The notes beneath the pieces are model-generated. The model saw only the letters and a list, made by a program, of their open reading frames with translations, did not search any database and was not told where the DNA came from. Below, piece by piece: positions 33,981-63,573 of a DNA stretch of 64,000 nt; within the stretch, counting starts at the first letter, position 1; each line of letters opens with the position of its first letter. Position numbers and translations under genes: made by a program. Origin of the DNA: Microthyrium microscopicum (taxonomy: Eukaryota); NCBI GenBank assembly GCA_010405405.1, contig MU004231.1, forward strand, positions 1,557,784-1,621,783. Direction: 5' to 3'.

Positions 33981-33988
33981 GGTCTAGG
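33981..33988. repeat. Left target-site duplication GGTCTAGG
   Basis: The same 8-mer occurs at 63574-63581. Each copy directly abuts a terminal inverted repeat. Confidence 0.85.
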
Positions 33989-34082
33989 TTATCTCAGCCA
34001 ATCAGATCGCGCTAAGTCTCCACTAGCTGCGACGTAGTCACGTCTAAGGACAACTCGGAAAATTTTGCAGCGACTCGCTTCG
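33989..34082 (+). repeat. Left bipartite terminal inverted repeat
   Basis: TTATCTCAG at 33989-33997 and GTCTAAGGACAACTCGGAAAATTTTGCAGCGACTCGCTTCG at 34042-34082. By manual alignment the latter matches the reverse complement of 63477-63517 at 32 of 41 positions. Confidence 0.85.
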
Positions 34083-34549
34083 CAATTTTGTTATTTTTAT
34101 AAATAACTCAACACTATTATAATTATAGCCCCATAGCTTAAATTCGGTACTATTTAATCCCTATAGTTAGAAATCAGCTTTTTAATAAATCTATTTTTAT
34201 TTAGGATTAACGCGAAACCATAATATTTAACTATTCCTCCTAATATACCTAAAGACGTCTAACGTGTTTATATTTTAGTAAGCGCACATTTAACTATTAA
34301 CTACTAAATAACTACTACGGTATATATAATTTTATATATATAGATATACTTAAAACCGTTATCTATTTCAATCTAGTATGTTATTTTTAGGTTATTATTA
34401 TTAGTAGTAGTATATACTTTATTTTTATTCTACTAACTACTATATTATTACCTACCTAGTTAATTATTTCCTTATTATAGGATATATATATAAACTATTA
34501 AAGGGTCGTACTTAATAGATATTAAGAGTCTTCTAGTACTGTATATTAA

Positions 34550-34680
34550 TTAAGGTCTATAAGATATTAGTAAAATCTTTAATAAGCCTAACAAAGTTGT
34601 TACTTCTTATAAGATTTAGATAATGTTAGAAGATCTGTTAAGATATTAGAAGATCTATTAAGATATTAGAAGATCTATAG
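34550..34680 (+). repeat. 20-bp-period tandem array (AGATATTAGAAGATCTATTA)
   Basis: AGATCT at 34631, 34651 and 34671, with degenerate copies upstream. Confidence 0.8.
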
Positions 34681-34742
34681 TAATGTTTAATTGTTTTATC
34701 TATGCCTTACTGCTAATCTATTATACTTATTATATATTCTAG

Positions 34743-37700
34743 GTTAAAACTTTTTTAACTAAGTTAGTAATGCTATCTATAAAGACGAAAAGAATACTAA
34801 AAGCGCCTCTAGGCTTTAAAAGAAAGCCTATAAATAGGCAAACTAATAATAGAGAACGTTTTCCTAATTATTATAAAAGCTAAGAGACATAGTACCCTCC
34901 ATTGCTATACGACCTAAATAAGATAGAGCTAGAAGAACTTAATAAATATACTAGGAGGATACCTAGGATAAAACTAGAAACTATTTATAAGATAATTAAT
35001 ATCTTAACTTAGGGCGAAAGTTATTTAGAGAAATAGCCTAGCGTATTAAGAAGTGCTTTAAAATAATTCTATTTAGACATTAAGCTAAAAGAAGCCTAGA
35101 TTTAAGCCCTTTATATATTAATCTATGGTAGTAGGGATATACTTTTAATAGCTAAAACTAGGTTTAGCAAAAGCCTAATCCTATACGCCTATAGTACTCT
35201 AACTAGCAAGATTATATTCCAAATTATTCTTCTCAATAGACTTAGAGAAGACTAGTGTAATAGCATTAAGAACATAGAAGGATATACTCCTTATCTATTA
35301 ATAGGGAATTCTAAAGAGAAGATTCAACATCTTACTTACAAGATAAGGAGAGGAGACTTTAGTTATATTCTCTTATTACTAAAGCTAGTGTTATTCTTAG
35401 ACTTCTAGAAACTTCTAAAGGACGTAGAGTTTTAGCAAAGAATTAGATGTGTTGCTATTAATAAGTGTTACCTTATCCATTAGTGGCATAACTTTCAAAC
35501 AAAGTTTACTATAATTAGTAAGCTTAAAGCAATACTACTATAGGATGTCGTCTAGTTTAGATATACTAATACATTAAGTTGACTAGCGTAAGAAATAGTT
35601 CTTTAGCTTAGTGGCTTTTAATGGTTAGGTTAATATTAGTAGTAAACTACTCTATTAAGAATGAGCATTAATTGTCTAGATCTATCCATTGTCGTACACT
35701 TTATTAAGAAAGGCAAGCTTACTTCTTTTAATAATCTTTATAATATTCTATAGTACGTATTTTAATAAGTATACAAAACTACTACCTTAGCAAATAAAAA
35801 TTACTATAAAGTAACTGCTAGCTAAGAAGAAGTTTAACGCTAAGATATATAGTCTAACAATAAGTATAGTGCTAGTATAGATATAGTAAGTCCTAGATCT
35901 AATCTTCATTCTATAGAGAATAAGGATAATACTAACGGTGAATATTTAGGCAAAGAAGGTATTAATATTAATAGTTCTAGTTAACATCCTAAACTTAAGT
36001 GTAAGTATATATATAAACGCTCTAACTATAAGATTAAAGTTAAGAGTCCATCCAAGATACTAAAGATAATTATCTTTATTAATAGTATCTTTAGCATCCA
36101 AACTACGCTTATATACCTTTACTGTTTACTAGTTATACTTACTTCTTATCTTCCTAATAGTTACCCTAAGAAGTACTTACGCGATCTAAAGGCTAAAGCA
36201 TTTTACATTAATAGGATTATTAAAAAGTATATATCTTAGTCATCTAAGTATAATTAAAATCGCTACTATACTACTTTCTATAAACCTAACTCTAAGATTT
36301 AAATTATAATAGCAACTACTTATCTTAGGCTTAGCTACTATATTCCTAATATTATACTTATTATTATTTAGAAAATACTAATTAGTTATAATATGCTAGA
36401 TCTCTAGCAGCATACTAATTATAGCGCATAAGGTAAAGATAACTATAGTATAGTTAAAATTTAGCTCCTATATTACTTATATAATAAATATATAAAAGAA
36501 TAACCTATTTAAGATATACCTAAGCCTAGTATAGCTATAATGCGCTAGTAGAAGACTACTACGCGTCATATGCTTTTATTACATCGCGCTATGTAACAAT
36601 AACATTAGTCTTAACTAGCTCTTTTTTAATAAGCTTTATCACATCCTCTATTACAAGTATAGACACTAGGCAATGTATTAAATATTAGCAAAAATAGCCT
36701 TACTAATATAGAATAAGAATCTACTAAACTAGAATCTCTTATAGCTAGTTCATCTTAGGCCAAACCTTTAACCTAGAATATAATAGGAAAGCAAAAAAAG
36801 TTAAAGAAGATAGAGTTCTTTTCTAAACCTAAGACTAAGCAATAAGTAAAAATACCCTAGGAGTTCCATAATTTAGCAAACGCTAATTATATCCACATTA
36901 TAATCTAGAAGTTTCTTAGTAAAGATTAGATACTATCTTTACTAGCTTAGGATCCACTACTTTGCTATAATAGGTATAACCTAGCCCTATTACTTCCAAA
37001 GATTGCTCCTTACAAAGATAAATTAGCCTAACTAAAACCTCCAGCTCTTAATAGTCATAGCTAGTTTACTTTAGAAAAAATTATAGCTTAGGCGCAAAAC
37101 TAGGTATAGAGATTACATCTACCCTCTACTATATCTAAGTATAGTATATTATCTTTTACAGTACTAAGCCGTTATACTTAATAGTAGTTAGCCTATATCT
37201 TCTCTAGTACTACTAAGCTTAGCAACCTATTATCCCTAATAGAATAGGATTAGTTAAAGAGTTAAGCAACTCTTCCTTATAACTAGGATAAATATAATAA
37301 TTATAGTATAGACTTACTTAAAAAGCTTAAGGCGTTAGCTATTCTAGTACCTATAAGGTTTACTAAACTTAAGTAATAAAGGTAGGAACGTAGAAAACAA
37401 AAAGAGGCAATAAGAGGCTAGAGCGCATCTTAATCTACTAATTAATAAGTAATTAAGATTAACTTAGCTAAGGATACCAATAAGGCCATTGCATAGCGGT
37501 AAGAAGCTAACCATACTAACGTTAAGGCTCATTTCAAAGCTACAGCGCGCAAATAGGACAAAAAACAGCGTCGCTAGAGCAGCTTGCTATCTTAGGCAAT
37601 AGGTATATCTAGTACTGCACCAATGTCTAGTTTAGCTCCAAGACTATTAGCCTCTTCTCTAGCTCCCAAGCCTTTTTATTGCTATACGTTACAAGCTATA

Positions 37701-37950
37701 GTTAATACTACAATTCTTAAGAATTCTAAGCTAAGCAGTCCTATATCTCTACTTACTAGTAGAACTATATATCATAGTACTCTTATAGAGTTACTTATTA
37801 GCTTAACCTAGGCTAGAGCTAGTAAGCAAGTAAGAGACACTTTAAGCACACTACTTAGTTATAAAAGAGCTACCTAGTCGCTAAGTATTACTAGTATTAA
37901 ACAAGTAGAGAAGAGAGCTTAATAGGGAACTATTAGGTTAAGCTATATTT
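34743..37950 (+). pseudogene. RIP-inactivated RecQ-like superfamily II helicase (AcademH helicase); outer limits approximate
   Basis: One frame from 35082 to 36435, after reversing C>T/G>A changes, gives Q-motif KPKEAQIQAL, motif I LLIAKTGFGKSLI (35142-35180), motif II VAIDECHLIHQW (35451-35486), IIIFID, motif V ATTxLGLGxxIPD (~36312) and motif VI LWQRAGRGARG (36402). A C..CCxxC Zn site follows near 36880-36980. Many TAA/TAG stops. Confidence 0.88.
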
Positions 37951-38029
37951 AGAAAACGTATATTAGGCGTTTATTAATTTTTACAAAAAAGGGGAGGCAT
38001 AACACTACCTTTCTTAACTAATCATTGCT

Positions 38030-40190
38030 TTAGCTTAGTATATCTTTTAATACTAGTATATAGAGTTCCATGCTCCTAGCGAGCTACCTACTCTATATCT
38101 AATATTAGTAAAATGCTACCCTCTAATTAGTTAATATTAACTAAGATCTTCTAAGATTAAATTAGATTATCCTATAAATTTAAATATATTATAATAATAC
38201 TAAACTTCTGCTATCTAAGTATATATTTCTAGTAGAGTTAGATAGAGTAGCATATAGCTATAGGCTTACTAATAATAGGACTATATTCTATCATTATGCC
38301 ATTAATAGAAGCTATATATACTAACAACCCTTGCTATATTTTTAGTAAAAGCATAATTATAGAATAAGTTATTATATGCTTCTCTCGTTAAAGCTTTTAG
38401 TTAATATACTATCTACCAGTATAGCTATTCCTTAGTATAATGCCATTACCCTATAATATTTAAAGCGCGTAAGAAGATATATTTACTTCTTCTTCTAAAG
38501 GTCTTACCATAATATTAATAGCCTCCTATCTATTATAGTATATTACTCTTAGTATTATATCTCACTACGTCTAAGTAAAGATTAGATTTCTATATAAGGT
38601 AATAGCTTAAGATAGCAAGCTAAGTATAGTCACTACTAGCTCAACTTAATCCTTATAGTACGTAGGAGGAACTAACCACTACGTAGTAACATTATTAACA
38701 TTAGTACTTATAGAAAGGGAGTTAATAAGCTAAAAGGTAAGAAGTGAATATAGCCTACTATAGTACCTACTTAAACTAGTTAAGACTAGAGCCTAATGAG
38801 TATTTAACTATATCTGCTACTCCAGATCCTCTATATCTCTTTATTATATATTTACTCTACATCTAAGCTTTATAAAGCTTTGCCTTATAGAGATATTTAG
38901 TAAGTTTAATATTAATATTAACGTTATATATTACATTGCTTACACGCCTTTCTATATGTAGTTTTAAGTTCCTTTACTTACTTAATAACCTCTAGTTAAT
39001 GCGTATATAAGGCTATTTAGGTCTATTTCTAAGTTTAACTCTTAGACTAATTCTCACACTTCTCTAGGCCTAATTATTATCTTTATAGTGCTAACATTAA
39101 ATCTCTAGTCACTACCTCTAAGTTTATGGCGCTAGATTCAAAATCGCATTTACTACTTCTTAGTAGCTTAGCTGCCTAGGAAATTAAGTCCTTATTTATA
39201 CGTATTTAGTCTAATATCCCTTACTTATTTGTTAAGCCTCATGCTAAGAGAGTTCCTTAGGTTAATCTATATTTACCTAATAAGCCCTAAGCAGACTATT
39301 ATCTTAAATACTGCCTATTCTAAGCCTATTATAGCTTATCTTTATAGGCTTATAAGTAGCTAGTAAGTAGTCAATATTTAATAGACAATACTATATAAAT
39401 CCTACTAACTTACTTATAGACAAGCAATAACATAGTTGCTAATCTTATAGGTTTAATCCTAGTCTTATAGTACAAGATTTTAGTTACTAAATCTAGATAA
39501 CTTTAGTTTATATAGTAAAGACTATCTTCTAAAATTTATGTTACGTGCCATTAGACTAGGTTAGACTTCTCTTATTCTAAAGCCTAGAAGTAGACTATAT
39601 AGTAGCCATTTATCCTATACCTTATAGTAGTAGCATCGTCATAGCTTTTAGTAAGTTAATCTTATTCTATAATATCTAATTCTAAGATTAATAGTAAGTA
39701 CTCCAGATTTTTATAATACCTCTAGTACTTAAAGAATAGACTTATAGACCTCCTATGTCTTTAAGAGATCTATCCCATTATAAGGCCATTATAATTAGGC
39801 TACCTTATAATATCCACTATCTTACGTTATTAATACTCCTATAGTAAATAGGCTCCTACGAAGATATTCTAGTATATAATTAGCTAACATCTTTATAAAA
39901 CTTTGTACAATTTGCTAGAACTTTATACTTTAGGAAAGAATAATAAGATATTATCCTTAGGGATAGCTTTAATAGGGAACAATAGCTTAAACTAACTAGG
40001 CTTTATTTCTATAAGAGTATAGGTTAGATAGGAGTATTGCTATAATAAAACCTCCCCTTGCCCTATATTTTAAAGCTCTTTAACGATATATACATTAGCT
40101 TTATATACCCTTTACAAACGTTAGCTTTCTATTAGACTTTTAAAGATGCCTTAATATTACTAGCCTTTAGTACATTTAGTGCACCATAAT
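38030..40190 (-). pseudogene. RIP-degraded putative cargo gene, unidentified
   Basis: A frame across ~39840-38900 de-RIPs to protein-like text (RKIVDIVG..SLFFEHW..LEYLPSILELD..GHHIVHFWALE..). No family assigned. Limits approximate. Confidence 0.35.
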
Positions 40191-43100
40191 ACGCTATATA
40201 TTTATACTAACCTATTTAAGCATAATTTTAAGAGTAAAAAAAAGATATATAGCCTAAAGGCCTATATAGCGATTGTTAAGGAATCTAGAACAATCTATTA
40301 ATAAGAGATATGTTTACGCTACAATAAACGCGTAGACCTCTTAGACGTTCTTCCCAACGCTAATAAGTATATTCCTTTACTTTTAAATTATAAATAATAA
40401 TGTTAATAATATTATAGTAATAATAATTAAGAAGAATAGGCAGTAGTCTAGGGCTCGCTACCCTTAAATCTACCTACTCCTTCCTTCTCTCCTCTACTAT
40501 TACTACTACTACTATAGCAATCTTCTCGCGCGGTTATACCTCTAAGCGCAATTTAATAACTATTATTATTTAAGCCTAAGCTCTTAAATAAGCGTAGATA
40601 CCTTACTTTGCCTACTTTCTCACGTTCTTCTAGATGAGAGTCCTTAGCGTTACCTACTAATTTTAATAGCAATTTACCTACCTTATAAGAGGAGGATTTA
40701 CTTGCCTTTAAAAAGGCTCCTCCTACTATAAAAAAAGAGGATTTATATATATAGGATAGAGATAAAGATAATACACTAATCTATAACGATAATTATAACA
40801 ACGATAATAGTTGCAATTTATTTATACCTTCTTAATCTCCTTCTCCTCTTTACTCTTAAGAGAGCTCTACTACTCCTTCTACTAAAACGCCTTAGGGCTC
40901 TTCTCCTCTCTCTCTCTCTTCTCCTTAGTTAGCTAGCGTACTATATTTTAACAGAGTTTTTTCTTACGCTATAAACTTCTTTGCCATACATACTATTACA
41001 CCATCTCCTCTTAACCTACTATCTCTTACCGCCCTAATTTCTCTCGCTAGTACTCATAATAATACCACCTATATAGACTTTAACAAAGAAGTTGAAGCTA
41101 TAAAAGCCTTACTTATAGCTCGCGTAGTAGCTACTATTACAAAGGCCTCCTCTTTAGGCCTAGTTAGGTCTTTTAACTTAAAGGCTATAGCTATTACTAA
41201 GGCCTACAATTTAGTTAAGAAAATCTCTTAGTATTTTCACAAGAGTAGCAATGTTTTAAGTTACCCTCTTATACTAAATTATTTCTAGTTAGTAACTATT
41301 AACTAGTAGAAGGCCATATCGCCTAACTAAAAGCGTAAGGTAACTTATATTAGTCGTATAGAAGAGACAGATGCTAGTAAGACTCTAGCTAATAATAACG
41401 TTTATACGTATTACTAAGCTAGGAGTTATATATACTAAGTATATATTTTAGAGGCGAGAAATGTTCTTAAAAAACCTAGGTTCTAATATTTATAATGCTA
41501 TATAGTAGGGCTACTAAAGGGTAGTTATAGTATAGTTAAACCTATAAATATACTAACTAGGAAGAAGAAGGCGTTAGGAAGATTACTAAAGGAACGTAGG
41601 GAGTTCATAGCAATTTTGCTTATTAGTAGAGGTTTAGCTAATACGTTGACTTAAGTAGTAATAAGTATAGTATAGTAAAGGGTAGCGTTTTAACACACTT
41701 TATACGTAATAATAGTAACTACCTAAGTGCATTTTGTTCTTTATAATTAATAGTTTAATCTAGCTCTATAGGTTTATAGAACTCTACTAAATGACTATAG
41801 ATGTCTAGTATAGCTTAATATTATAAGACACGTCTCAATACGCTTCATCTTTGTGAGGTAAGGTTTAACCTAGCCCTACAAGCTTAGTTTAGCTTCTTTT
41901 AAATAGCTATAGGTTTTAGGGCAGCCCTAATTGTAAGACTCTACATCCTACATAATTATAATAAATAAAACTATTATAATTATATAAACTTAGTTCTTAT
42001 TCTTATTGTAATCATTTAACTATAACTATTAGCATTCAATACTATATATAGATTAATTTAGGAGGCAAAGTAGCTATACTTTATTATAGTTAGGAAAGTC
42101 ATTATATACTTAAAGTTAAGGAATATAATACAATTAAAGTACTAACATAAAGATTTAATAAAGTTAATATAAATTTAATAAAATAAAGTTAGAGAAAGGG
42201 GCTATGAATGCTAATTAATTAGATACACGCTTTTCTATTAGTTAATATCTTCTAATATATCTTAAGAAAATTAACTTAGTATTCTTAACTTTAATTATAT
42301 AGCCCCTACTCTTAATAGTTTAGCTTTAGAAAAGCTACTATTATATCTACTATACATCTCTTATAATGCTAATACTACTATTCTTATTTACTAGACTTTA
42401 GCTAAGTCTTTATATTATAGAGATAGCACTTCTAATACTAATTTAGTCTATCTATTACTAGCTACTTATTATTATCGACTAAAAGACTACTAGATAAGCT
42501 CTACGCACTCACTATATATTAATATTAAATTATAGAATTAGATAAGTAAGTTCCTTAATACCCATCAAGTTATTACTTATATTAAATACTTATATTCATT
42601 ATCTTGCCTTCCCTAAAACCCTTACTCTTACTATACCTTACTTTATATTAGTAGAAGGCAACTTCTTCTTATAGAGATTACTGTCTATTAGAACTATAAT
42701 TTCCTTACCTTTTTCTATATATTTAGTCGCTATAATAGCTAATATTAATACTCTAGCCGTAATTACTAACTATTGTTGCTCTTAGCCATTCTAGTCTATA
42801 TCCTTCTATTAATATTACGAGTTCCTAGCTTCTATATACTCTTTTAATATTACTAATGCCTATACTTACTACTATTACTACAAAAAGATAACTATTTTTG
42901 TAGATATCGTTACTATTTATAGTACATTAATTATAAGGTTTTTTTAAAACATTACGCTAGTAAAGGCTATTACGTTATATAATAATAGTTATATAGTTAT
43001 TCATTACTTTAGCTTAGGTTATATTATAATCTATAGCTACGCTAATTACTCTTACTTATCCTTTGCTAAGCAGGTAGCCATTTAATTAGGTTATTGTTTA

Positions 43101-46100
43101 TAAAACCCTTCTACTTATCTATACCTTTATTACTTCTTTACACTACTCTTTAACTCTTTATTAGAGTTCCTTACTCCCTTTAAGAGTAAGGACTTCTTTA
43201 TCTTTATTTGCTTTAATTACTTACGCTACCTACTATATGCTACAATAGTATCTCGTATTTAGCCTTATATTAAAAGACTATAAGTTCTACTATACTATAT
43301 CTATTCAAGAACTAACCTTATTTACCTAGTACTATTAACGTAGACTCTCGTCTACCAACCTTTAAAGTAAAGATCTCTTATCTTTTATAATTTGCTATTA
43401 CCTAGTGCTTCCTCCTACTACTTACGCAAGGAGAGGCAATTCTATTTTAGTCTTTAGCTATCTATTAGCTTAATAACGAGAAAGCTATAAGTTCTATTCT
43501 ATAATTACATTCTAACGACTTATACTTCTATTTAACTCTATAAATATATACTTACACGTATTTATGCTTTTCTAGCTACCTAAACTACCTAATAAATTAG
43601 TCTTTAGTCTTTATAATTTTAGAAGGGAAGCTATTAACATCATTAGTTTGTAGTTATTATTTAATCACACTACCTAGGTGACAATATAAGACCTACTAAG
43701 AACCTTTCGACCTTTAAATCCTAATATAACTCTAAACTATAATAATAACTTTAAGCACTACACCTCTAATAACTAACCCATAATTCTAACTAAGTTTATT
43801 ATTAGCACTATGCCTAGCCTCTACTTCTAGGTTTACTTCTACGCGCCCCTTATCGTTTAGAGTATTTAACAGTTCTATAAGCAAAACTTCTCCCTTTACG
43901 TAGTATAGTCTAAGTCTTAGACTAAAGCCAATTTCGATTAGCGTAGTTTTATTCTTATAGCACTTATATCATACCATTATGCTATCTTTATATTAGGCTA
44001 GGAGAGAAAGCATTAGGAGACACTTACGCATATGCGATATTAAGCTAACATCAACGCGCGACGTCCTTTTGGTCAGATTAGCCTACCCTTTTAGCTCTCT
44101 ACTATAATAGCTATTTATATTACGCTTAGATTAAAGGATAATAGCTTACTCCCTACTTAGCAACAAGTAACAGTACAAAATCTAGGTAGATAGTTAGTTC
44201 GCTAGGGACCAAACAATAGCTAATATACTTAAATTGATTTTCACTACCCTTTAACCTATTATATCTTCTAAGTCTTAGTTTAAATTATAAACGTAAGTAT
44301 ATATTCTTCTAATTGCGAATCATTTCACTAACCTTTAGTTAGGACCTAGGCTTATAGCGACTCTAAGTAGTTCCTCCCTATTTAAATAGTTTTCTTATAA
44401 GAAGCAGTAACTCATTTCGTGTATGTATAATTAGAAAGTCTAGCATCCTACACCTAATAGCAGACTTATTCTCTTAAATCTTTTAGCAGTCTAGTGCTAA
44501 GATCGCTAATGTCTTTATTAAAGCTATAGTCTTATATAGTCGCAGGAAATACTACATAGCTAATTAAAAATGCACTTAATGCCTATCCTATTGCCTAACG
44601 GTAGTTCCTTATTCTTAGTCCTAAATTGACTAGCTAGTAATAATAGAGTGCGTTAACTTTTCTAGATATTAAAATAATTAATGTGCGTACTATATATAGG
44701 ATAGCGTACATTATAGTTTTAAAGACGTCGTTTCTTATTTACCCGCCTTAAGAGACAAAGAATAGGTTTATAGTACCACGCTACTTAGATTAGTTCTAAT
44801 GATTAATACTAGCCTCCCGCCGCCAATATTTTACGCTCCTTTCCTTAATATAGCTAATCTTCTAACTATACTTAACTTATAAGGAAGTATATAGTCGTAA
44901 TTATTAGACGTAATTACAGTCAGATAATATCCGCTAGCTCTAGCTGCTATTAATATCTAGTAGCTCTAGATTTAGCTTTAGTTTAGTCGCTAAGGGTAAT
45001 ATAAGTAGGAGGTAATAACTAACAAGATCCTATATAGTAGTACTTTAAAGGCTTTACTTACTTGTTAGTTATAGCTAAGGAAGATAACACTAGCTTATAA
45101 ACTTAAATCTATCTAACATTATTCTTTATAATCATGACATTATTAAATATATTAAATCTACGTATTATCGTCTAATATGATTATATAGTTTTGGACTTTA
45201 ACAAAGCGCTAGATCTTACATAATAATATAAAGCAGATAGTAATAAAACTATATATAGTTTATATATAAGAACATACTATAGGATATCTTTATCTAAAAA
45301 AAGCTAAGATTTCTATAATCTATAGCTACTAAACTATAAGAAATATTATTGACTTAATAGAGATAAATAATATATTAACTAGAGTAGAGAATAGGCCTTA
45401 CAAATTATACTCTTTAATTCTACTGTCCAGTTATTGTGAACAATTACTAAAAGTAATTTTAACTAATATAGCTCTTTTGCTAAGAAGTGCTACTTAAAAA
45501 GAAATTCTATATAATTACTACTAATATTAGTTGAATGAGATACCCTCTATAGCAGCAATTCTAAATAGCAAGTAATACTAAGTATAGATTCTATATCATT
45601 GTCCTTAATATTTAAAGGTTAATATAGTATATAAACTATAGCTTCCAATGGAAGGTATTATCGCTTTTATATTTTATGTTATCGCCTCTAATATTTAGTA
45701 ACTAATAAAGAATTTAACGATTAGGCTTATAATAGGCACATTACTAGTAGTATATTTTATAAAATCACTACTAGTATTAAGATATTAATAAGATATTTAG
45801 TAAAGAGACTTTACATAGAAGTACTACTAAATATATATTTTATATAATCGTTACTAACTTCTAGAAATTAATAGAATATTTAGCAAGCAGTCCAAAAGGG
45901 GTAATAAGTTAGCTAGTAATTAAACGCGGTTAGTATTAATATAAGAGATAATAGTTAACTTAATAGTTAATCTTATATACAGCTAGTAGCTAGCTAATAG
46001 TTAAGGGTAGCACCTATTATAGATTTATTATTTTACTAATAGAAATATATAAATCGATGCTATAATAGGCTTCTTACGTATAACATAGTAATACCAATTA

Positions 46101-51004: not shown

Positions 51005-51965
51005 CATTCTCTTTCTTAAAGTCTACCCGCTAGCTTTATTCTAAGAGTATAATTCGCACGCTAAATACTATATATCCCTTCCTAAAGACTATAGCTAGCT
51101 TCATTCTAAGAGCATAATTTATACGCTAAATACCATATATCCCTCCCTAAAGACTATCGCTAGCCTTATTTTAAGAATATAATTCGCTACGCTGAACTCT
51201 ATTATAATCCTCCCTAAAGACTATTACTAAAAATCCGCTTGCTAGCTTTATCTTAAGCGCATAATTTATAGTATTAAACTCTATCATATCCCTCCCTAAA
51301 GACTATTACTAAAAATCCGCTTACTAGCTTCATCCTAAGCGCACAATTTGTAGCGCTAAACTCTATTATATCCCTCCCTAAAGACTATCACCAAAAATCT
51401 GTTTGCTAGCTTTATTCTAAGCGCACGATTTGTAACATTAAACTCTATTATATCCCTCCCTAAAGACTATCACTAAAAATCCGCTTGCCAGCTTTATTTT
51501 AAGCGTACGATTTATAGCGTTAAATACTATTATATTTCTTCCCAAAGACTATCACTAAAAATCCGCTTGCTAGCTTTATTCTAAGCGTACGATTTGTATA
51601 TTAAACACTATTATAACCCTCCCTAAAGACTGCTACTAAAAGTCCACTCGCTAGCCTTCTTCTAATAGCATTATTTATACAATATAAGAATATATCTTAC
51701 TCCCTAAAGACTATCGCTAAAAGTCTACTCGCTAGCCTTCTTCTAATAGCATTATTTATATAATCTAAGACTATATCTTCCTCCTAAAGACTACCGCCAA
51801 AAGTCTACTTGTTAGCCTTCTTCTAATAGCATTATTTATATAATCTAAGACTACATCTTCCTTCTAAAGACTACCGCCAAAAGTCTACTTGCTAGCCTTC
51901 TTCTAACAGCATTATATACACAATATAAGACTATATCTTCCTCCCAAACACTGTTACCAAAACCT
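51005..51965. repeat. Tandem array of ~13 units, period 65-82 bp
   Basis: CCTAAAGACT-like anchors at 51015, 51081, 51146, 51213, 51295, 51377, 51459, 51541, 51622, 51703, 51783, 51863 and 51943. Confidence 0.92.
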
Positions 51966-52169
51966 CCTTAATATCTAATAGTAAACTAACATATTAACTA
52001 TAAATATATACTCCCTAGCGTAGTAAAATTATCTTAAACGAAGCTCTTATTATAGGCTATTAACTAGTATTTTAGTAACTAATAATACGTATATTTCCTA
52101 TTTCTTAGTACCTACTATAAGTTGTTGCTAACTTATTAACTATTAAGAAACACTACATATTATATACTA

Positions 52170-52500
52170 CAACTTATACTCGTTTTTCCTTTAGACTACT
52201 ACTAAATATCTTCCTATTCTTAAATATTAAGAGATACGGCATATTATCTATCCTTACTTGCGCTTATTTTTCTTAGTACTGCCGCTAAATATTTCCTCAT
52301 TATAGACTATTAAGAGATATAGTATACCGCCTATCCTTACTCATGCTCGTTTTTCTTAGTACCGCTACTAAATACTTCCTTATTATAGATTATTAAGAGA
52401 TACGATACACTACCTATTCTTACTTGCGCTCGTTTTTTATAGTACTGCTGCTAAATACTTTCTTATTATAGTCCATTAAGAAATGCGGTAGAGTACCTAA
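52170..52500. repeat. 83-bp tandem repeat, 4 copies
   Basis: ATTAAGA(G/A)AT anchors at 52226, 52309, 52392 and 52475. Confidence 0.9.
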
Positions 52501-54849
52501 CGACAATATAACTCTCTTTTTCTTTAGCGCTATATTTAAAGGTACATCTTTATTAAAGTCTAAGTAATATAGTAAGTAGCCTAGTAGTACGTATTATTTA
52601 TTTCTTTACAAATATCCTTATCCCCTAGAGTCATAATAGCAGATTACGTAGTTAATTATATTGCTATTTACTAGCCCCTTTATTAGCTATATTTCTTTCT
52701 ATTCTAAAAACTTATATTCTAAATTACTTATATAGTTAAATACTTATATACTAAATTTGTCTCTATCTTTTCTTTATATTAAACTATAATACAGAATTCT
52801 TAAAAGCTATATCTTCTTATTTAAGTATTCTTTAACGTAAGATTATAGTACTATCTTATAAAACTAGTAAGCTCTAGTTCTCTAGGAATAGATATCAATG
52901 TTATAATATTTAAGGTTTAGAGTTTAATATAAGTATCATCCTTCTAATATGTTAAATATAGTCTTTCTATATACTAACTCTATTATAATCTAGAGACTTA
53001 GAAATATTAAGTCTCTATACTAAACTAGTACTACTTATAACTTAATAGCTAAAGACAAGATCTTTATAGTTAAATTTAATTACTATAGTATGCCTATTAA
53101 AGCCCTATTTAATCTTATATACTATAAATTAAGCAATAGCTAATAGTACGCTTATCCTTTACTCCTTAATAATTCTAGATATAGTAAAGTAAAGTATATA
53201 TACTATGGCGCATCCCTTAACTCACTAACAATAATTAAAGATACATTTATTATTATTAGTTTATAAGAAGAAGTTCTATAATCTATTATAGAATTAGTTT
53301 TTAGACGCTAGCCCTTTTAGCGCAGCTATTCTTAAAACTATAGCTAATAGTATTACGACGTAGCAAGTACTTTATATATAGATAGAGTCTTAAGATTATA
53401 GCGTCTAGAACGTAATACTATTTATAGTACCTACAAGTAGATTAAGGTATAGAGATATCCTTAGGATGCTCTATAAGTCCTTAGTTCTAATACTAAAATA
53501 ATATAACTAATAGAGACCGCCCCTAGTATTCACGAGATAAAATAATAGGTAGCTTACGCTAATATTCTTACAAGCTTGTTAAATCTAATCGCTATACTAA
53601 TACCTAGTTAAATCCCTAATAAGCTTATAGCCTCTATTAATAACCTTTTAAGCTCGTTAATAGATCTTGTTCCAAGACCTAGCAGAAGCTTTTATAAGAT
53701 AACTATACTACGATTAAGTTCTAAGGGGTTTCTTACAGCACTTAAAGGAGGTACTAAAGCCTAAATACTACTTAAATAACTTATTTAGTAAATACGCGTG
53801 CTTTATGCTAGATTATTATAATAAGTTAATATACTACCCTCTAGCACGTCTTTAAACTTATTATTATAGGTTAAAGAGGGTATAAAGCTTAATATTAAGG
53901 CTAAAAGATATAAGGACGACTTGTCTTATAATATAGAAGTATTTAGTAAAGTATATTAGTTATTTATTAACTCTTCTGCTAATATTCTATATAGACGTAT
54001 ATTAAAGAAGAAGTAGAAGAAGTTAAATATTAAAAAGACTAAGCAGTTAAATACATACGATTTATTAGCTTCCCTCCATTAGATATAGAGTTACTCTAAG
54101 CTTTAATATCACTTCTAATAGTTTAGCCTTTTAAACCTCAAAAGTTTAAATATGTTATCTACTACTCTATTAAGAAATATCTTAGTCTCTACTTAGATAT
54201 ATCTATACCTCTATTAAAAGCAATAGCAGCATATAAACTAAATAAAGTTACATCTACTTAATATAATCTAGCAGACTCTAGTCCTAACGCCTTAATTTAC
54301 TATAACAACCAAGGTCTAAATAAGAGACTTAGAGCTACTTAGATATAGTATACTATATTTAGATAAGGCGCTAATAATTAGAGTAGTAGAGATTAGTACA
54401 TCTAACTTACGTTAAGAAGTTAGAAAAGTACAGTCTAAGAAAGTTATTACTATTTAATTATAAATCTTTTATATTCTAACGAGATATTAGAAGATATTTA
54501 AAAATATAGACTAATAGAATGCCTTTAAACTTAAGAGTTACTATATAAAATAACCTTTATAGATCGCTCTAAACGTTACTTCTAATATTAAAGTTTTAAC
54601 CTCTCTCTATAAGAGAAAGACACCAATTCTATATCACCTCTAGCTCTACTATAACTTATCTAACTATAGGCTTTAAGTAGTTAAAAGTCTTAATATAAGC
54701 AGTACCTCCTTAACTAACTATCTTAGTTTATGACTAACAACATACTAAGCCTTTATTCCTAATAGTATAGCAACGGCCAATATATTCTCACTAACTAGCA
54801 ACTAGTACAAACTTACTATATTTATCCCTTTTAATAGCTTTACAACGCA

Positions 54850-55630
54850 CTTTGACGTAATAGCTATCTATTAAGGCTTTACTAGTAATACAACATTTAA
54901 CTACTAGAGCCTTAATAAACAGACCTAAAACAACTATAGCTATAGTGCTTTAACGTAATAGCCATCTATTAAGGCTTTATTAGCAATACAACGTTTAACC
55001 ATTAGAGTAAGAGTAATAAGCTTAGAATAAACTATAGCTATAGTACTTCAATACGATAGCTATCTATTAAGGCTTTGTTAGCGACGCAACGTCTAACCAC
55101 TAGAGTAAGAGTAATAAGCTTAGAACAAACTATTACTATTATGCTAGCCGCCTAGCCAACTATAATAACTCTACTAGCGACATAGCGAATTAACTACTAG
55201 AAGGAGGATAATAGGCTTAGAATAAATTAGTACTATTATACTAGCCACTTAGCCAACTATAGTAGCTTCACTAGCTATATAACCTTCCACCACTAGGGCA
55301 AGAATAATAGACTTAGAGCAAACTATTCCTAGCCTAGCTAAGTATACTAACTTCACAAGCTTACAACCTTTCACTACTAAAGTAAGAATAATAAGCTTAG
55401 GGCAAACCATTCCTAGCCTAGCTAAGTACACTAACTTTATAAGCTTATAACCTTCTACTACTAGAGCAAGATTAATAAGCTTAGGGCAAACCATTCCTAG
55501 CTTAGCTAAGTATACTAACTTTATAAGCTTATAACCTTCTACTACTAGAGTAAGAATAATAGGCTTAGGGCAAACTATTCTAGCCTAGCCAAGTATACTA
55601 ACTTTGTAAGCTACGCAATGTTTAACTACT
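54850..55630. repeat. Compound tandem array: 98-bp units followed by 84-bp units
   Basis: TCTATTAAGGCTTT at 54867, 54965 and 55063. (A/G)GCAAAC at 55317, 55401, 55485 and 55569. Both unit types share an ACTAGAGTAAGA.TAATAAGCTTAG core. Confidence 0.9.
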
Positions 55631-57599
55631 AAAGCTAGTAAATCAAATATTAGCCTTAATTATCCTAATAAGCTACGCTAGTTGTATAATAATTAATCAC
55701 TAGAATAAAATCAATAGGCTAGAAGTACAGCAAACCTAAACATTATAACGACTAAGTAATATATAAGCATTTATAACTCGTTTAGCTTACGTAAATAAGC
55801 CTAAAACTAAAACCTAAGGAAGAACATACGGCTATAAGATATATATCTACATCCAGTACTAGCTCAATAATATATTCTTTTCTAGTATAATGATAAGTTA
55901 GGTATAAATTAAGGAATAGCTCTAACGCTTTAACTATAAGTTAGGATCTCTCTTATTACTTTATTATTCTCTACTAACTCTAAGCCTTAAATAGCTATAT
56001 ACAAAATAATTATAATAGAATCTCTAATATTATACGTACTAAATTATCTACTAGCTTATACCTACTTATACTTATTCTAGTTATTATTAAGTAGTCCTAC
56101 CTTAGTCAAGTTAATATTCTATAGTAAACTCTATAAGAAAGTAAGTCAAAATCTCTATATTGCGTACTACTAAGGTAAAGAACTATTCCTAGTATTCTAT
56201 TAGCTAAGATCTTCTAACAAGTTCTAACATTAGATTACATTATATTAGACAAAAATAAAACTAACCTTACTACTAACCTAACTAACCAGTAGTCTACTAA
56301 TAACAACAATCTATAATTACTAACAACCTATAATTACAATTCCTATTCATTCTAGACGCTAGGAAACAGCTCCTTAAAGAGCATATTTCCTACTAGGTAA
56401 GACAAACCTAAATTACATACAAAGTCTCTATTATATAATCTTGCTAAGTACTTACTAAAATCCTAAATACCTATTACGTATTTACATTATAACTTATATT
56501 TATTCTATACTTCTCTATAACCTCTATCGCTCTAGCATTAGTTCTTTCTTTATCTATATCTTATACGATATATTAAAACCATCTATAAAAAAGATAGTCA
56601 CTATCTAACATTAGCTCTATTATCTTTTCGCCTAACGTAAAATATACGTTATATAATAATATAGAAGTAGAGTATAGGACATACTTAAACTAGGACTTTA
56701 GCTTTAATTAACGTAATTCGATTAGAGGATAACAACAATATACGTAGGTAGAAAGTAATAGTAGATACTAAAGTAATAGAAGAAGTAAAATATAAGTAAT
56801 ATTAAGAAGCATATAGAATAAGTATAAAAAAACGATAGGATTATACCTACTACTTTAGACAATCTATACTAATTATAGTTTTATAGGGGGTAGATTAACG
56901 TCCTATCTAGGTAGGCTACTACCGTACTTCTTTCTATATAGGGTAAGCTAAAGTGCTTAGCAGTTCTATTATTAATACTCGTACTAGATACGTTGCCTCT
57001 AAGCTTATAGATATATCTTCTACCTCTATCTCTTCTTTAGGAAGTACTTCTAAATAGGCTAAGATAAGGTAGAAGACGCATCTAAGGCTAAAGGTATTCT
57101 TATATAGACTAACCCTCCTAAAGAGACCTATAGAGGTAGATAATATATCTATGTTAGGAGGATTATATACATGTCTTAAGTATAGATCCTTACTACGGCC
57201 CTATCCTTCCTTAACCTCGTCTAAACTATAACTACTATAAGGAGCAAGCAGCAAAGAACATTCTTTATAAATAGCAGTGCAAGAGAATACATAAACTACT
57301 ATAATTACCTCTTCCTTTCCATAGTAAGCATATACTGCCCAATTCCCTAGTAATTATAACAATTAAAGCAGCTAGCAATACTATAACCTTATAACTTACA
57401 AATATCTTATTAGATGTAGAGGAAACTATAGTTATTAAACCCTCCCTAATTCTATACTTATATTACATTACAAAGCGGCATATAAGCTATGGCTACTAGA
57501 TCTAGCATCACTAGAGTTTAAATCTACACAGACATTTACTAGTTAGTTTCCTTCCCTATTTATTAATTAACATAAATAGTTATATTAATAGCCTAGATT

Positions 57600-57808
57600 T
57601 AGACCTACGTACGCTCTTTCTTGCTAATTAATTATAAATATATAAATAGCATGCTTATTAAACTCTACTTTAGTAAAGTTCTCTCTATCTCCTATTATAA
57701 TTATTCATATTAACACTTATAATTAGACCTAAGTATAGTCTTTCTTGCTAATCAACGTAAATATATATAAATAGCATACTTATTAACCTTTACTTTAGTA
57801 AAGTTCTA
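57600..57808. repeat. ~85-bp direct repeat, two copies with starts 124 bp apart
   Basis: AGACCTA..TCTTTCTTGCTAAT..ATATATAAATAGCAT.CTTATTAA..TACTTTAGTAAAGTTCT at 57601 and 57725. Confidence 0.8.
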
Positions 57809-59940
57809 GAGTTATTACCTTACTATATAGGCAATCTTTAAACAAGTGCCTCCATTAGTATATATGCCTTCTAAGTCTATCTATCACAAGAAATAACGAA
57901 CCTTAAAACTACTCATTAGTTATTTAGAGAGAGTAATACCTAAGAGAGCTAGCTAGCATCTTACTTTAATAACGACCTTAGTAAGAAGTAAATATCCAAC
58001 GTCTAATAGGCCTACTAGATCTACTCCGCTATTTACCTATATGCTACCATAGCTCCCTCCCTTAGCAACATATATATATATATAAACGTTACTAATAACT
58101 ATTTAGTAATTAGAGAGAACTATTATTAAGTTAGGAGCAATACGTAGGGCAATTAGTAGTTATAGTCTAGGTTACACTAATACATAGTACTTAAACATTA
58201 GGAAGGTAAAGATCTTACTAAAAGAAAAGGATAAGCAAGCTAGCAAGTACGTTATTTAGTTATAACTTTCTATTTACTTTACTCACATTACTCTTCTTAC
58301 CTATCCTTTTTCCTTCTTAGATAATGCTTAGAACACTCTTAAACTTCACTATATTTACTTCTCTAATAGCACTCTTCTTACTACTTCTAACTGCTATAGC
58401 TTTCTGCTAAATGTTTATATAGCAAGAAGTTAAAAGAATTAACACAGAGGCTAGCAAAACAACTTCAACAATCAATAGAACTAAAGACACTTAATTATGC
58501 TCTTTACCTACTCTACGATGAAGTTAAGATATAGCTAATTAACCCTATAGAACTAGCATTAATAGTTACTATAGCGCGCTAGCCGCGCTATTTACCCACC
58601 CTATAATAAAGCTAATATATAGCTAATTAACTCAATAGAACTAGCATTACTAACTAGCGTAGCATACTAGCTACGCTATCTATAAATTAACGACTTTAAT
58701 ACCTAAGTAATTAATCTTACCAAGTTAGCATTAATAGCTAGCATAAGACACAATATATAGCGCTATTAATACCCACTACGCAATTACTTAGTAGATTATA
58801 TAGAAAGAGCAATAGAAGCACTTCAAAATAATTTAATAAACAAAGAGAGTAATTTAATTACGCTTACAATATTACTAGAGCAAATAAAGCAAATCTACCC
58901 GTTATAAGTCCTAGAGGTCCTAAATATAGTAATAGGCATATACTTCTCAATAGGATTACTAAACTCTAAAAGCTTACTAAACTATTAAGAGTATAATATA
59001 TTATTACTATTTATAGACATATACTACTTCTTCTTCCCCTTCTTTTTCCTTTAAAAACTTTCTAAGACGTTTACTACCGCCTAGTAGTAGTTATGACTAC
59101 TACTAGACTAAATAGTTAATAAACCTCCTACTACACCCTACTAACCTATACTAACATCAACATCCTTATTACCTTAAATGCTATAGCTAACACTAGAGCA
59201 GAAAGTTAAGAACTACCTCCTTAGAATTAGCCTACGCCTCTATTAATTTCCTCGCTACCTTAGACATATATATAGCATATCTTACTATACTATAACCCTA
59301 TTAAACAATATACTAACTTCTTCCTAAGATAAGGCTATATTAAAGCTAAAGAAGGCTGCTACTCTATCTACGGTAGAAGAATCCTAATTACTAACTATTC
59401 TTAGATAAAACTTAAAAGATCATAGAACTAATACGAGATAAAATACGATTATCTATCATTCTATATATTACCTTACGAAGAATCCTATATTATAATAAGT
59501 AAGGCTAAGACGTTAATTTAAACTATCAATATAGATAACATTAGTTTACTTAGCGGCGTAAAATTACCCTTATCTCTATACTTTAAGCTAACCTAGAATG
59601 AGCCTAAATTAACAAACAGACATAACTAATACTTAAATAGGAAATTATAGTGACTCTAAACTCTTCTACATTTAATATATAACGAAGGTCAATATACTAT
59701 CCCATATTTAGGACGCGCTTAGAGTTATCTATTAAATCAATATTACAAAAATAAGAAAGTATTCGTTAGCAAGGCTAAATTAAATAGCGCAATCCTATTA
59801 GCTAACATTATCTTACATTATCTAATATTTTCTAACATTAATTAGATTATATCACAATAGATAAGATCCTATTACATCCTGCTATAATTTTAACCTTATA
59901 CGAATTACGACTAAAGCAGAAACCTTAAATAAATATATAT

Positions 59941-62900
59941 TTATAAATCAACTTCTATGGCTTTGAATGCGCTAGGATCATCTCCGTTAAACAATATATC
60001 GCCTATAGTCTCTTTTATTATAACCTCTTCTTATATATCTAAGTCGTTACTATTAACATCTTAGTTAAGAATGTTAATAGGCCTAGTTATAATATTGTTT
60101 CCTATATAATCTTACCTAATAGTAGTTTTACAATTAAAAGACTTAGCTTTAATATTAAGCTTATTAAGTCCTATCCTCTTTATATCTAGCAAGTTATAAT
60201 ATAGGCCATAGTTCTTAATTGCGAACTAGGGTCGAGACTCTATAAGGCTATCTTTAATTAGATTCTAGCATAATAAGAATATATTATGCTCCACACTAGC
60301 ATTAGTATACTTATTACTAACCTTACGCACAAACGTACACGTAAATACGTCTTATAAATAACGTATGTATGTATTATAGAGGTAGACTCTATTAAATATT
60401 GCCTTAACGTCGTAAGTTAAGTTACTAAATAACTTTATATCTCTACTATAGTTGCTATTTAAATACTCTAGTCCTAGATCCATAGGTTTAAAGAAGTTCT
60501 TATAGCCTTCCTAGTTAACTAAGCTTAAGGCTAAGATAGACCTTTAAAGTTTAGAAGTATTTACATTAGATAAGTTCTACCTAAGCTATAGTATCTTATC
60601 CCTATAGTTGTTCTAACTAGTGCCATAAAAGTAAATAGTTAGGAGATTAACTAAAAGGCGCAAAAGTCTAATATCGCTATACCTAAAGGCATATTACATA
60701 GTTAAGAGCAACTTAATCTCTTATAAGTACTAGCACATAGTTTAGAACTTAATATTATTACTTCTATCTAGGCACCCATCTCATGCTTTTCTTATAAAGG
60801 CTATTTAATAGACATCTTTAATAATCTCATCAAACTATTCTAAAAATAACCTATTAATATAAGATTTAAATAGTTCTAGGATAGCAAAGAATAAATTATC
60901 AATACGCTTAGAATAGTAACCTTTCTAGTCTATACTTCATAAAAACAACGCTAAGACTCTACTACTAAATCCTTATATTAAGATAGGAATAACCTAATAG
61001 GTTTAAGCATTATTACACTTTCTATAGCTTTATCTCTATATACTAACGTCATGCATAATAGAATATAGAGCTAGTATATTAACCTTAGAGGAATCCTAAT
61101 AGGTTTAAACAATATAGAAGAAGTAGTTTATATATATATAGAACCACCTAGAAACTAAATAAAGGAACTTCCTCAAATCGTACGGTTGTGTTTTATTAAA
61201 TGCCTTAGCCTTAATAGAGTAGTTAATCTTTATGCTTAACTAATTATTATAGGTAAGAAATAGCCTCTTTCTAAAGATCTTAATACTTAGATCTAACGCT
61301 TATAAACTATTAGTAGAGTTTTCATTACTAACTATACCTAAGATGCTAGATAACGATACTAGTATAGAATCTACTAAAGGAATACCACGTTTAGGATTAG
61401 GAGACGCACTTATGTTACTAATAGACTCAATGTCTATACTACCTTATTTATTAGACGCCTCTCTAATTTTACTATTATTAAGCTTATTTGCATTATTATC
61501 TTTAACATTAATCTACTTATTATTATAATTATTATCTTTAGGGCTACTACTAGATAAGGATATATCCTTAAATATATCTACATTAGATCCGTTCTAGCTA
61601 GAGATATAATAGACTAATAAACTCCCACTATACGTTTAGGCAGAAGATAAATAGGCTACACTAGATAAAGAGGCATCTAGTCTAAAATTAAGTAAAGAGG
61701 ATAGAACAGACGCTATCATATCTAATAATGAGGCTATATCTCCTATATTATTAATTAGAGGTTTTAGGAAGCTAAAATATTATAAGAAGATTTTATTATA
61801 TATTCTATAAGTACTATCTATTGTTTCCTTATTCTCTATAATAGCGCTGAGCTAATTAAACTCTATCTTATATAGTACAAGTATATTAATATCTAGCATG
61901 CTAAGCTAATATTTATCCTTTTTATACTTTACAATCTAAGGTTTAATAATATTTAAAATATTACGTTTTAAAGCGTCTACAATAAGGCACTAGCTAATAG
62001 TTTTAATATATTTACCTCCTTAGCCATTAGCCTTTACTAATAAGCCTTCCTATATTAATTTCTAGTTAAACTCCTTTGTTAGATCGTACATATCTTATAT
62101 TAGTCCTTCTAAAGGTAAGGATGGATAGATTATAATAATAGCAGTAGTAATAGCCGCTATAGTTATAGTATTACTTACTATCTCATTATGCTTATAAGAT
62201 ATAAAGTTCATATTATCGTAATATAGGACAGCCTAATGGTTTAGTACACGTCGTCTAATATTTCTCTATATCTTAGGCGTTAGCAATACATAAGTTCTTT
62301 CAAGGTTATAAACTTAAGATTTTTAAAGATCTTATAAGATATACAAAGATCTTATAATATATTTAAAGATCTTATAACGTATTTAAAGATCTTATAATAT
62401 ATTTAAAGATCTTATAAGATCTTATATTTAATACTAAGCATAATACCATTACATACTAAGGCTTGTCTCAAAACCTTCTTCATATGCCTTAGTACAGTCT
62501 TATAACTAGTATATACTCTAAGAGCTGCTAGCAAGTCTATAACCTATCTCTTTATACCCAACCTAAGCAAATAGACACTAAGCGTTGCTACTAAATAGTT
62601 ATTTGTCTCTCTACTTCACTAATAAAGAATAATTACTATAATTATATATATAAGCTTCTATCCTAGCTTATCACTCTATTTATATATCTTATAGTCCTAA
62701 TTGCATATAAGTTTATAAAAGAAGGCTATCTAAATAGGTACAGTATTCCTTATCTTCTTAATAGCTTTCTTAAAGTCAATGTTTATACTATCTACTCTAC
62801 TACTAAAGCGATTAAAACCTATAAGTTTTATAAGGGCGTGAAACTCTATCTATAGTCTAGAATTAGTATAATACTCTAGCAAGATCCTATTACTTAATAA

Positions 62901-63357
62901 CTCTTCTATAACGTCCTTTAAAAGCGTACGGCAAGTAGTAACATTAGCATATAGGTTACTATCAAGAACAATATTACTATAATTATCTTTTTAGCTAGCC
63001 TACGATAAAAGAAACGATTTTATAGTTATCTTCTAATCTTAAATACATTTTAGTATTATAGTAAGCTTTTGTTTAGCCAAATTTAGGCTCTACCGTAGTG
63101 TTATCATCGCCGCTAGTTATGAACAACCTAATAGTTCAGCATTATTAGGCTTATATTGAATCCTACTTAAGGTATTCCCAAGATCTATTATGGTTATCAT
63201 ATTGCTAAAGATATATAAATATAGACTCTTTATTATTATAGAGATAAATCTACCTTTACTACTATTATTACCAAAGAAAGGTACGTCTAGCCTATATAGA
63301 AATTGGGTTATCTCTATAAGACCCTCCTCTACAACGCGTACTTCTAATAGGAGGCAT
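59941..63357 (-). pseudogene. RIP-inactivated Academ-type (DUF6589-like) DDE transposase, intron 62272-62456; start tentative
   Basis: De-RIPped exon 1 end: NNYLAATLGVYLLGLGAKRQVIDLLAALGVCTGYKT. Exon 2 stays in one frame from 62271 to 59941: YDNMNF (62220), ITTA..CPSLP.EGLMQDMYDPT, GDQLS (61248), SGWFH..MN (61149), AFRHGDIGLL..YFYGTGQNNYGDEML, LVNWEG..FFKPMDLGLEHLN, NSTHD, SPDI, acidic tail. Intron has a GTATGT donor and a CTAAC..AG acceptor. Confidence 0.88.
62321..62426 (-). repeat. 20-bp-period tandem array inside the transposase intron
   Basis: AGATCT at 62327, 62347, 62367, 62387 and 62407, plus a half unit at 62417. Confidence 0.88.
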
Positions 63358-63476
63358 AATTTATAGAATTAATAGAGAAAAAGACAGTAATTGTAATGAT
63401 AGTAGAATTATTAAAAATATATATATATTAGTAGCGAGGACACAGTTGTAATAATATAGGCATTTACTAACAACCA

Positions 63477-63573
63477 CGAAGCGCGTCGTACTAAAAAGGT
63501 CCGAGTTGGCCTTAGACCCTCCTGCGGAGGGAGCCCGCGGACAGGCAGGGTTAGGGTCTGAGAACTGAGATAA
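63477..63573 (-). repeat. Right bipartite terminal inverted repeat
   Basis: CGAAGCGCGTCGTACTAAAAAGGTCCGAGTTGGCCTTAGAC at 63477-63517 and CTGAGATAA at 63565-63573. Confidence 0.85.

Follow-up and report, generated by a model that had tools for sequence, protein, structure and literature searches.

Is the low-GC block in a 64,000-nucleotide stretch of the Microthyrium microscopicum genome (NCBI GenBank assembly GCA_010405405.1, contig MU004231.1, positions 1,557,784 to 1,621,783 of the forward strand; the whole stretch is hereafter 'the window') a single mobile element and, if so, what does it carry? The block occupies positions 33989-63573 (29,585 bp). It had been proposed from its letters alone (the original prediction) to be a giant, AcademH-like transposon hidden by repeat-induced point mutation (RIP), with ~22 kb of passenger DNA between a helicase and a transposase remnant, and to point to an independent, DDE-based class of gene-carrying fungal transposon. 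Our analysis identifies the block as a single RIP-mutated element. Taken as a whole, it is very probably a single copy, inactivated by RIP, of a cut-and-paste DNA transposon 29.6 kb long that encodes a transposase and a RecQ-like helicase as well as a predicted six other genes. The family to which it belongs is defined by a DUF6589 protein, a convergent RecQ-like superfamily 2 (SF2) helicase, terminal inverted repeats (TIRs) starting with TTATCTCAG and 8-bp target-site duplications (TSDs). Since its complete relatives measure ~10 kb (n = 2), the window element is an oversized member of an existing and widespread family, and the claim of an independent class was overstated; the evidence does not suffice for the labels 'AcademH', 'passenger DNA' or 'new class'.

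The boundaries of the element are precisely marked. The 8-bp TSD GGTCTAGG occurs twice in the 64-kb window and no more, at 33981-33988 and 63574-63581 (both on the plus strand), where each copy adjoins the block. The length of the duplication is exactly 8 bp, since the match breaks down at the ninth base on either side. The left TIR (33989-34085, plus strand) and the right TIR (63477-63573, minus strand) both start with the terminal 9-mer (33989-33997 and 63565-63573) and share a subterminal 18-mer, GTCTAAGGNCAACTCGGA, at 34042-34059 on the plus strand and 63500-63517 on the minus strand, neither motif being found anywhere else in the window. The subterminal inverted motif, written GTCTAAGG(A/C)CAACTCGGA, lies 53 nt from one end and 56 nt from the other, and two matches to it were obtained in none of 100 shuffles. 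The two ends also align over ~95 nt as an imperfect inverted repeat. Together, the TSD, the 9-mer, the subterminal motif and the end alignment indicate that the exact duplication and the bipartite inverted termini first noticed here are real. The flanks are rich in GTCTAG and of low complexity, which makes short matches likelier, but a chance resemblance to one element, produced by the outer ends of two short, unconnected elements or of an AT-rich isochore, is highly improbable: the 8-mer of the TSD and the two motifs of the TIRs are confined to these positions, the block contains a single helicase and a single DUF6589 remnant (with no second fragment of either elsewhere in the window), whose ends and orientations are those of the relatives described below, and the interior is colinear with other copies.

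Between these ends, the block bears the marks of a RIP-mutated repeat. GC content, in 1-kb bins, is 43-51% in the flank up to 34.0 kb but falls to 24-33% between 34.0 and 63.0 kb; the TpA/ApT ratio is high (1.65 versus 0.67 in the flank) and (CpA+TpG)/(ApC+GpT) is low (0.42 versus 1.34). As inferred from protein alignments, 222 of 252 C>T changes (88%) fall at CpA and 241 of 297 G>A changes (81%) at TpG. The window remnants match three M. microscopicum proteins, here P0014, P0015 and P0016 (accessions ending in 316, 323 and 320), which are encoded on one contig of 2,506,003 bp and to which they are 61-66% identical by protein search. RIP-type transitions can explain 409 of the 422 differences in the helicase and 187 of the 189 in P0016, compared to 12% in a shuffled control. 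The concealment by RIP that had been proposed is thus borne out. Mutation is heavy throughout the region between the TIRs, whereas the outermost ~95 nt of each TIR escaped it (GC 0.49 on the left and 0.59 on the right, with many intact CpA) and the flanks bear no trace of it, even immediately next to the TSD.

Both core genes are recognizable despite this damage, although to different degrees. All six frames of 33989-63690 were translated with X at every stop and searched against Pfam and a large protein collection, and the latter gave a single match for each core gene. The left core gene is a RecQ-like SF2 helicase pseudogene (34770-38012, plus strand) with 84 in-frame stops and no frameshift, placed by tblastn in a single frame and without gaps against P0015 (1,083 aa with DEAD and Helicase_C domains; 95% of the query). 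Of its 1,081 aligned codons, 659 are identical (61%), 409 differ in ways that C>T or G>A changes alone explain, and 13 do not fit. A RecQ-like remnant pointing inward from the left had been predicted, and this gap-free alignment confirms it. Pfam did not detect the helicase in the plus-strand stop-as-X translation, even with an 800-residue cut at E 10, so that a hidden Markov model search of both genes recovered only DUF6589 in the window copy. All 35 matches of P0015 among solved structures by sequence are RecQ-family proteins (WRN, RECQ5, RecQ, RECQ1 and BLM; best E 7.9e-14), and P0015 combines the DEAD and Helicase_C domains of the RecQ core with closest similarity to RecQ proteins; neither a RecQ zinc-binding nor an RQC domain was matched on it by Pfam up to E 10.

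The right core gene, a putative DDE transposase of the DUF6589 family, is a pseudogene on the minus strand (59944-63357) that points inward from the right, as predicted. It consists of three blocks (63357-63274, 63206-62457 and 62265-59944) with 67 and 191 nt of intron-like sequence between them, contains 58 stops together with the changes D629N and H664Y, and is 63-75% identical to P0014. DUF6589 (PF20231) was the sole family found in the six frames (minus strand; E 4.8e-15, 55.6 bits), while the un-mutated P0014 (1,062 aa, 63% identical to the window copy in the search) scores 209.7 bits; both exceed the gathering cut-off of 27 bits. All 67 aligned relatives match the family and carry DUF6589 with no other domain. 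Because the differences of both window genes from their siblings are nearly all of RIP type, the proteins were almost identical to those of the sibling before RIP. An exhaustive HMMER search with P0014 retrieved 1,254 cluster representatives at E <= 0.001, 97 of them at E <= 1e-30, with Basidiomycota the commonest source. In the full-text literature searched, DUF6589 or PF20231 received one relevant treatment, as a possible virulence or epigenetic factor; DUF6589 is mentioned there for a rust fungus.

Is DUF6589 then a transposase domain? AlphaFold2 models of P0014 (predicted local distance difference test score 75) and of P0017, a compact 605-aa relative (score 89), display, in order, two long beta strands and a short third, helices, two strand-helix units, a long all-helical insertion and a further helix. 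The best structural neighbour among ~48,000 solved chains (VIA) is the P element transposase for both models (Z 8.0 over 356 residues for P0014 and Z 8.7 over 282 for P0017), followed at lower scores by Tn5, Hermes, ISCth4, retroviral integrases and RAG1, and all 50 rows listed for the P0017 model are RNase H-like enzymes by our own classification. Three acidic residues are conserved at the places expected of a DDE enzyme in an RNase H-like core: D301 on the first strand (39 of the 41 sequences having the column), D629 after the fourth strand (64/67) and E888 on the helix after the insertion (65/66). A search of the DUF6589 profile against PDB sequences returned nothing meaningful. These models support DUF6589 as a putative RNase H-like DDE transposase with an alpha-helical insertion domain, the fold being supported and catalysis inferred, and they uphold the DDE-based part of the original prediction. 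With more than 1,200 sequence clusters, DUF6589 would thereby gain a likely function, as the DDE transposase encoded by a TIR element that makes 8-bp TSDs. The P element and hAT (Hermes) transposases are the best or near-best structural neighbours over both the RNase H core and the helical insertion domain. Both families also make 8-bp TSDs. Conversely, they have no sequence or Pfam similarity to DUF6589, and they encode no helicase.

The association of the two core genes extends well beyond the window. Metagenome contigs scanned with a 15-sequence DUF6589 alignment yielded 43 loci encoding a DUF6589 relative, 18 of which extend for 2.5 kb or more beyond the match on its downstream side. A P0015-like helicase is present in 12 of these 18 informative loci, always on the opposite strand and thus convergent (13 of 43 when one locus with a shorter flank is included). 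The 9-mer TTATCTCAG was found at nine ends in eight loci, each time outside the gene pair and pointing inward, whereas chance would, by our arithmetic, account for about 1.6 occurrences in 210 kb; several of the ends also share CTCAGAC and GTCT(A/G)AG...CAA(C/T)TCGGA motifs. Two relatives are complete: L020 (positions 651-10646 of its contig; 9,996 bp, 8-bp TSD CCATCCCA) and L029 (3950-13956; 10,007 bp, 8-bp TSD TGAACATT). They are 88% identical, have 227-bp TIRs and occupy different insertion sites, so that an 8-bp TSD borders all three complete elements, including the one in the window. Their GC content is low (0.41-0.43) and their core genes have no open reading frame (ORF) of at least 110 aa between them; L020 and L029 may themselves be mutated copies.

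These associations also bear on whether the helicase gene could be of the telomere-linked RecQ (TLH) type and have nothing to do with the transposase. Fungi are described as having subtelomeric families of RecQ genes with low GC (PMC4522978), but here the helicase lies inside the TIRs, its homologues converge with DUF6589 in those 12 of 18 loci, and the left flank of the window element holds housekeeping genes (DNA ligase at 24013-27030, acetyl-CoA synthetase at 27889-29738, then glycogen synthase), which leaves a TLH-type origin with a negligible probability.

What sets the window element apart from its relatives is the distance between its core genes, 21.9 kb against 117-7,196 nt in the 13 relatives. 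Does this middle part belong to the element? Four DNA runs of one sample (organism A, the window's own sequencing) contain the window's interior. When contigs of runs X1 and X2 were compared with positions 36000-55999 of the window at 80% likeness, two kinds of contig were recovered: some that match the window exactly (record 2, for instance, has 0 differences) and others that are colinear with it and 80-83% alike. An un-mutated contig of 6,881 nt (record 1) is colinear over 37471-44339, and further listed un-mutated pieces cover 36163-37919, 44680-46880, 48310-50446 and 53844-54813. In X1, the contigs differ from the window by A>G or T>C at 2,353 of 2,885 places, and this predominance indicates that the other copies carry the un-mutated letters. 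Contigs of the un-mutated type were also found in X6, a run that is RNA by the tool's guess only (42367-43031, 43690-46215, 47319-49458, 50652-51091 and 52992-53945); among the runs listed as containing the stretch, none is recorded as RNA. Over 36000-55999, X6 covers 42-56 kb and leaves 36.0-42.0 kb bare, with peak depth at ~50.7-52.7 kb. A further run from another source, X5 (organism B), gave 60 contigs in total, all of them short relatives of low depth in which transitions run both ways, among them one 236-nt contig identical to window positions 54240-54475.

Because un-mutated, colinear contigs occur at higher depth, the 21.9-kb middle is part of a repeated unit, a conclusion supported over 36-56 kb, that is, over most of the middle. 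The sibling contig is consistent in its layout: the order helicase, P0016, transposase is common to it and to the window, and since the helicase and transposase accessions lie seven apart, six annotated genes are expected between them from the order of submission. In the public annotation, P0014, P0015 and P0016 stand as ordinary hypothetical or helicase proteins with no mark of a mobile element. Eight consecutive annotated fungal 'genes' appear to be one mobile element.

Several points weigh against reading the block as a transposon that moved as a whole. The word depth of the un-mutated form at position 42400 (546.5 of 695.1 in X1 and 1,982.2 of 2,914.5 in X2) is compatible with several un-mutated copies, but contig word depth is not a copy number. 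These copies could have been duplicated by means other than transposition, and transposition itself would be a conclusion from sequence. The count of six genes is a prediction from accession numbering, and the role of the helicase is purely conjectural. As for the transposase, Foldseek found no match in the PDB at E <= 0.001 for the model of P0014 or of P0017, and Z scores of 8.0-8.7 lie in the range that the structure-search tool calls 'middling'.

What, then, is the middle made of? Between the core genes, one pseudogene could be identified, at 47783-49444 on the plus strand. It was located by searching the protein collection with the stretch 47669-49468 (plus strand), picked because X6 contigs fell there, which returned P0016; the pseudogene aligns without gaps to P0016 over 554 codons (66% identity, 44 stops). 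P0016 (554 aa) is a serine- and proline-rich orphan with a Cys-rich C-terminal part that resembles DUF3716 weakly (E 0.0016 and 18.8 bits, under the cut-off of 22); in a protein atlas, DUF3716 clusters rank first for it at 0.86-0.88, which the tool itself treats as a lead only. Since DUF3716 genes also form part of the fungal transposon REP9, P0016 may well be an accessory protein that belongs with the element, and not the product of a gene taken from the host. On either side of this pseudogene lie segment A (38013-47782, 9.8 kb), for which accession order predicts two gene models and which un-mutated colinear contigs cover over 36163-46880, and segment B (49445-59943, 10.5 kb), with three predicted gene models and un-mutated-type contigs over 47319-50446, 50652-51091 and 52992-54813. 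Segment A gave no Pfam match. Reading frames could not be picked reliably from stop density, nor from a model of codon usage for which one core gene served as training set and the other as test.

The interior gave no sign of nested transposable elements of the kinds searched for. Recoding the block into purines and pyrimidines, which makes comparison insensitive to RIP, revealed no inverted repeat of at least 60 nt nor, once the tandem arrays at 51.0-51.9 kb are set aside, any dispersed direct repeat of that length. No nested element with paired long terminal repeats (LTRs) or long TIRs was found in the block. No reverse transcriptase, integrase or other transposase was matched by Pfam in the six-frame stop-as-X translation. 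In that screen, DUF6589 scored 55.6 bits, roughly one quarter of the 209.7 bits of its un-mutated form, and the helicase went undetected. Any domain whose intact score is below roughly 100 bits would thus escape it, and the Pfam blank over the interior is weak evidence.

Two origins can be envisioned for the middle. Under the first, it is captured host DNA, and the element is a DDE-based counterpart of Starships that mobilizes useful genes. The middle is three times longer than the largest core-gene gap among the 13 relatives, holds six gene models in the sibling by accession order, travels with the element, shows no similarity by tblastx to the interiors of any of the 43 metagenome loci (in which P0016 likewise has no relative) and, over 42.4-54 kb, is matched by contigs of the run guessed to be RNA. 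We nevertheless regard true cargo as unlikely: P0016, the product of the single interior gene identified, is an orphan whose DUF3716-like domain is weak, genes with DUF3716 domains also occur in the fungal transposon REP9 (PMC8232023), no Pfam domain emerged from the six-frame translation of the middle (a search of low sensitivity), no host paralogue was shown, and 30 kb is small beside Starships.

Under the second, the middle comprises the element's own accessory genes, the remains of other mobile DNA inserted into an ancestral element of at most ~10 kb, or both, and the composite kept moving without functional cargo; we give this about an even chance. The relatives already possess a conserved small Cys-rich third ORF, just downstream of the DUF6589 gene and on the other strand, in 15 of the 43 loci (tblastn, E <= 1e-3), exemplified by L008:3073-3699 (minus strand) and found in 14 further loci. 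Its ~130-residue core reads GH(V/I)GRIMETELG ... CxAC ... ECW ... CARC ... C, and its only Pfam matches are weak ones to DUF3716 (E 0.064) and Zn-cluster families; the interior gene of the window is likewise DUF3716-like, and parts of the middle are taken up by non-coding tandem arrays whose units measure 65-98 bp. Conversely, a composite of mobile DNA is at odds with the lack of any LTR pair or inverted repeat of at least 60 nt, even in purine/pyrimidine space, and of any reverse transcriptase, integrase or second transposase detectable by Pfam, and an hhalign comparison of the third-ORF profile with P0016 was negative. Other interior ORFs of the relatives have no Pfam domain above cut-off. 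Of the original suggestion of ~22 kb of passenger DNA, the extent of the middle and its inclusion in the repeated unit therefore stand, whereas its passenger nature is so far unsupported, the one gene identified there being an orphan of weakly DUF3716-like character.

The life of such an element might have run as follows. The transposase would bind the terminal 9-mer and the subterminal motif and cut the ends, and integration would proceed with an 8-bp stagger; the helicase may assist transposition, for example by unwinding the ends or in repair of the donor or target site, and may permit long elements. This lineage would have gained about 15-20 kb (six gene models) between the two core genes, after which the enlarged unit would have transposed whole, and the window copy would later have been destroyed by CpA-biased RIP.

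How does the element relate to known systems? AcademH, attributed to Kojima (2020, Mob DNA 11:15), is presented in PMC10799480 as an Academ lineage with a helicase that is low-copy in Basidiomycota, Ascomycota and Mucoromycota; the supplements of PMC10799480 make no mention of DUF6589, PF20231 or Academ. The likeness lies in the pairing, within one fungal TIR element, of a DDE-type transposase and an SF2 (DEAD/Helicase_C) helicase, and to this extent the AcademH-like designation originally proposed fits. By contrast, PMC10045372 reports 9- or 10-bp TSDs for AcademH, against 8 bp in all three complete elements here, a difference that makes the label doubtful for the window element, which moreover has a predicted six additional genes in its 29.6 kb. 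As of 2017, Pfam contained no match to the RNase H-like domain of Academ, which is most abundant in Pucciniomycotina (PMC5751038, whose Supplementary File1 includes an RNase_H_Academ HMM); its agreement with DUF6589, which is commonest in Basidiomycota and mentioned for a rust, is circumstantial.

REP9 of Zymoseptoria tritici (PMC8232023) is similarly a multi-gene TIR transposon of a Dothideomycete, with DUF3716-domain genes of unknown role and with RIP-mutated copies in sister species. It differs in its size (7.9 kb with four genes), its 6-bp TSDs, its IS3EU-type, integrase-like transposase and the lack of a helicase. Starships (PMC9156397 and PMC11162782) are likewise large fungal mobile elements with several genes beyond the one for mobilization, but they are mobilized by a tyrosine recombinase with DUF3435 and can be hundreds of kilobases long, whereas the window element has TIRs, 8-bp TSDs, a DDE-like enzyme, a helicase and a length of 30 kb. 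DUF3435 had no Pfam match in the six-frame stop-as-X screen, which also missed the helicase, and both ends of the element are occupied by other genes. At the level of search results, the literature searched contained no description of a giant DDE cargo transposon, or of a TIR element combining RecQ and DDE proteins, in fungi.

The core genes of this family can evidently sit 22 kb apart and yet move as one unit, so that about 30 kb would be moved by a little-studied family, and helicase-encoding DDE transposons become candidates for gene carriage in ascomycetes alongside Starships. A stronger proposal, that a ~30-kb DDE/RecQ-helicase transposon is currently active in Pezizomycotina, where it picks up and mobilizes host genes by a second route independent of tyrosine recombinases, with the helicase enabling its length, strikes us as rather doubtful; were it true, DUF6589 would acquire a function and possibly mark a lineage distinct from AcademH, given the 8-bp TSD. 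Irrespective of that proposal, the un-mutated copies, defined ends and dead reference copy constitute a tractable system for the function of a transposon RecQ-like helicase.

Tandem repeats are a recurrent feature of the element. Six regions between the interior genes have repeat units that measure 65-98 bp and whose length is in nearly every case not a multiple of three; a repeat scan placed a 92-bp array at 46977-47303, within segment A, and non-triplet arrays of segment B at 51029-51952, 52172-52499, 54849-55133, 55250-55612 and 58499-58679. Near both ends lie 20-bp arrays containing AGATCT, one at 34626-34678, upstream of the helicase start, and a related one at 62315-62420, within the 191-nt intron-like gap of the DUF6589 gene; these could be subterminal binding sites or plain minisatellites. 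Outside the element, on the left, lies a glycogen synthase gene (minus strand, in the region 31413-33988), whose C-terminal ORF matches its Pfam family at E 3.8e-184 and upstream of which the element is estimated to lie by 0.6-0.7 kb.

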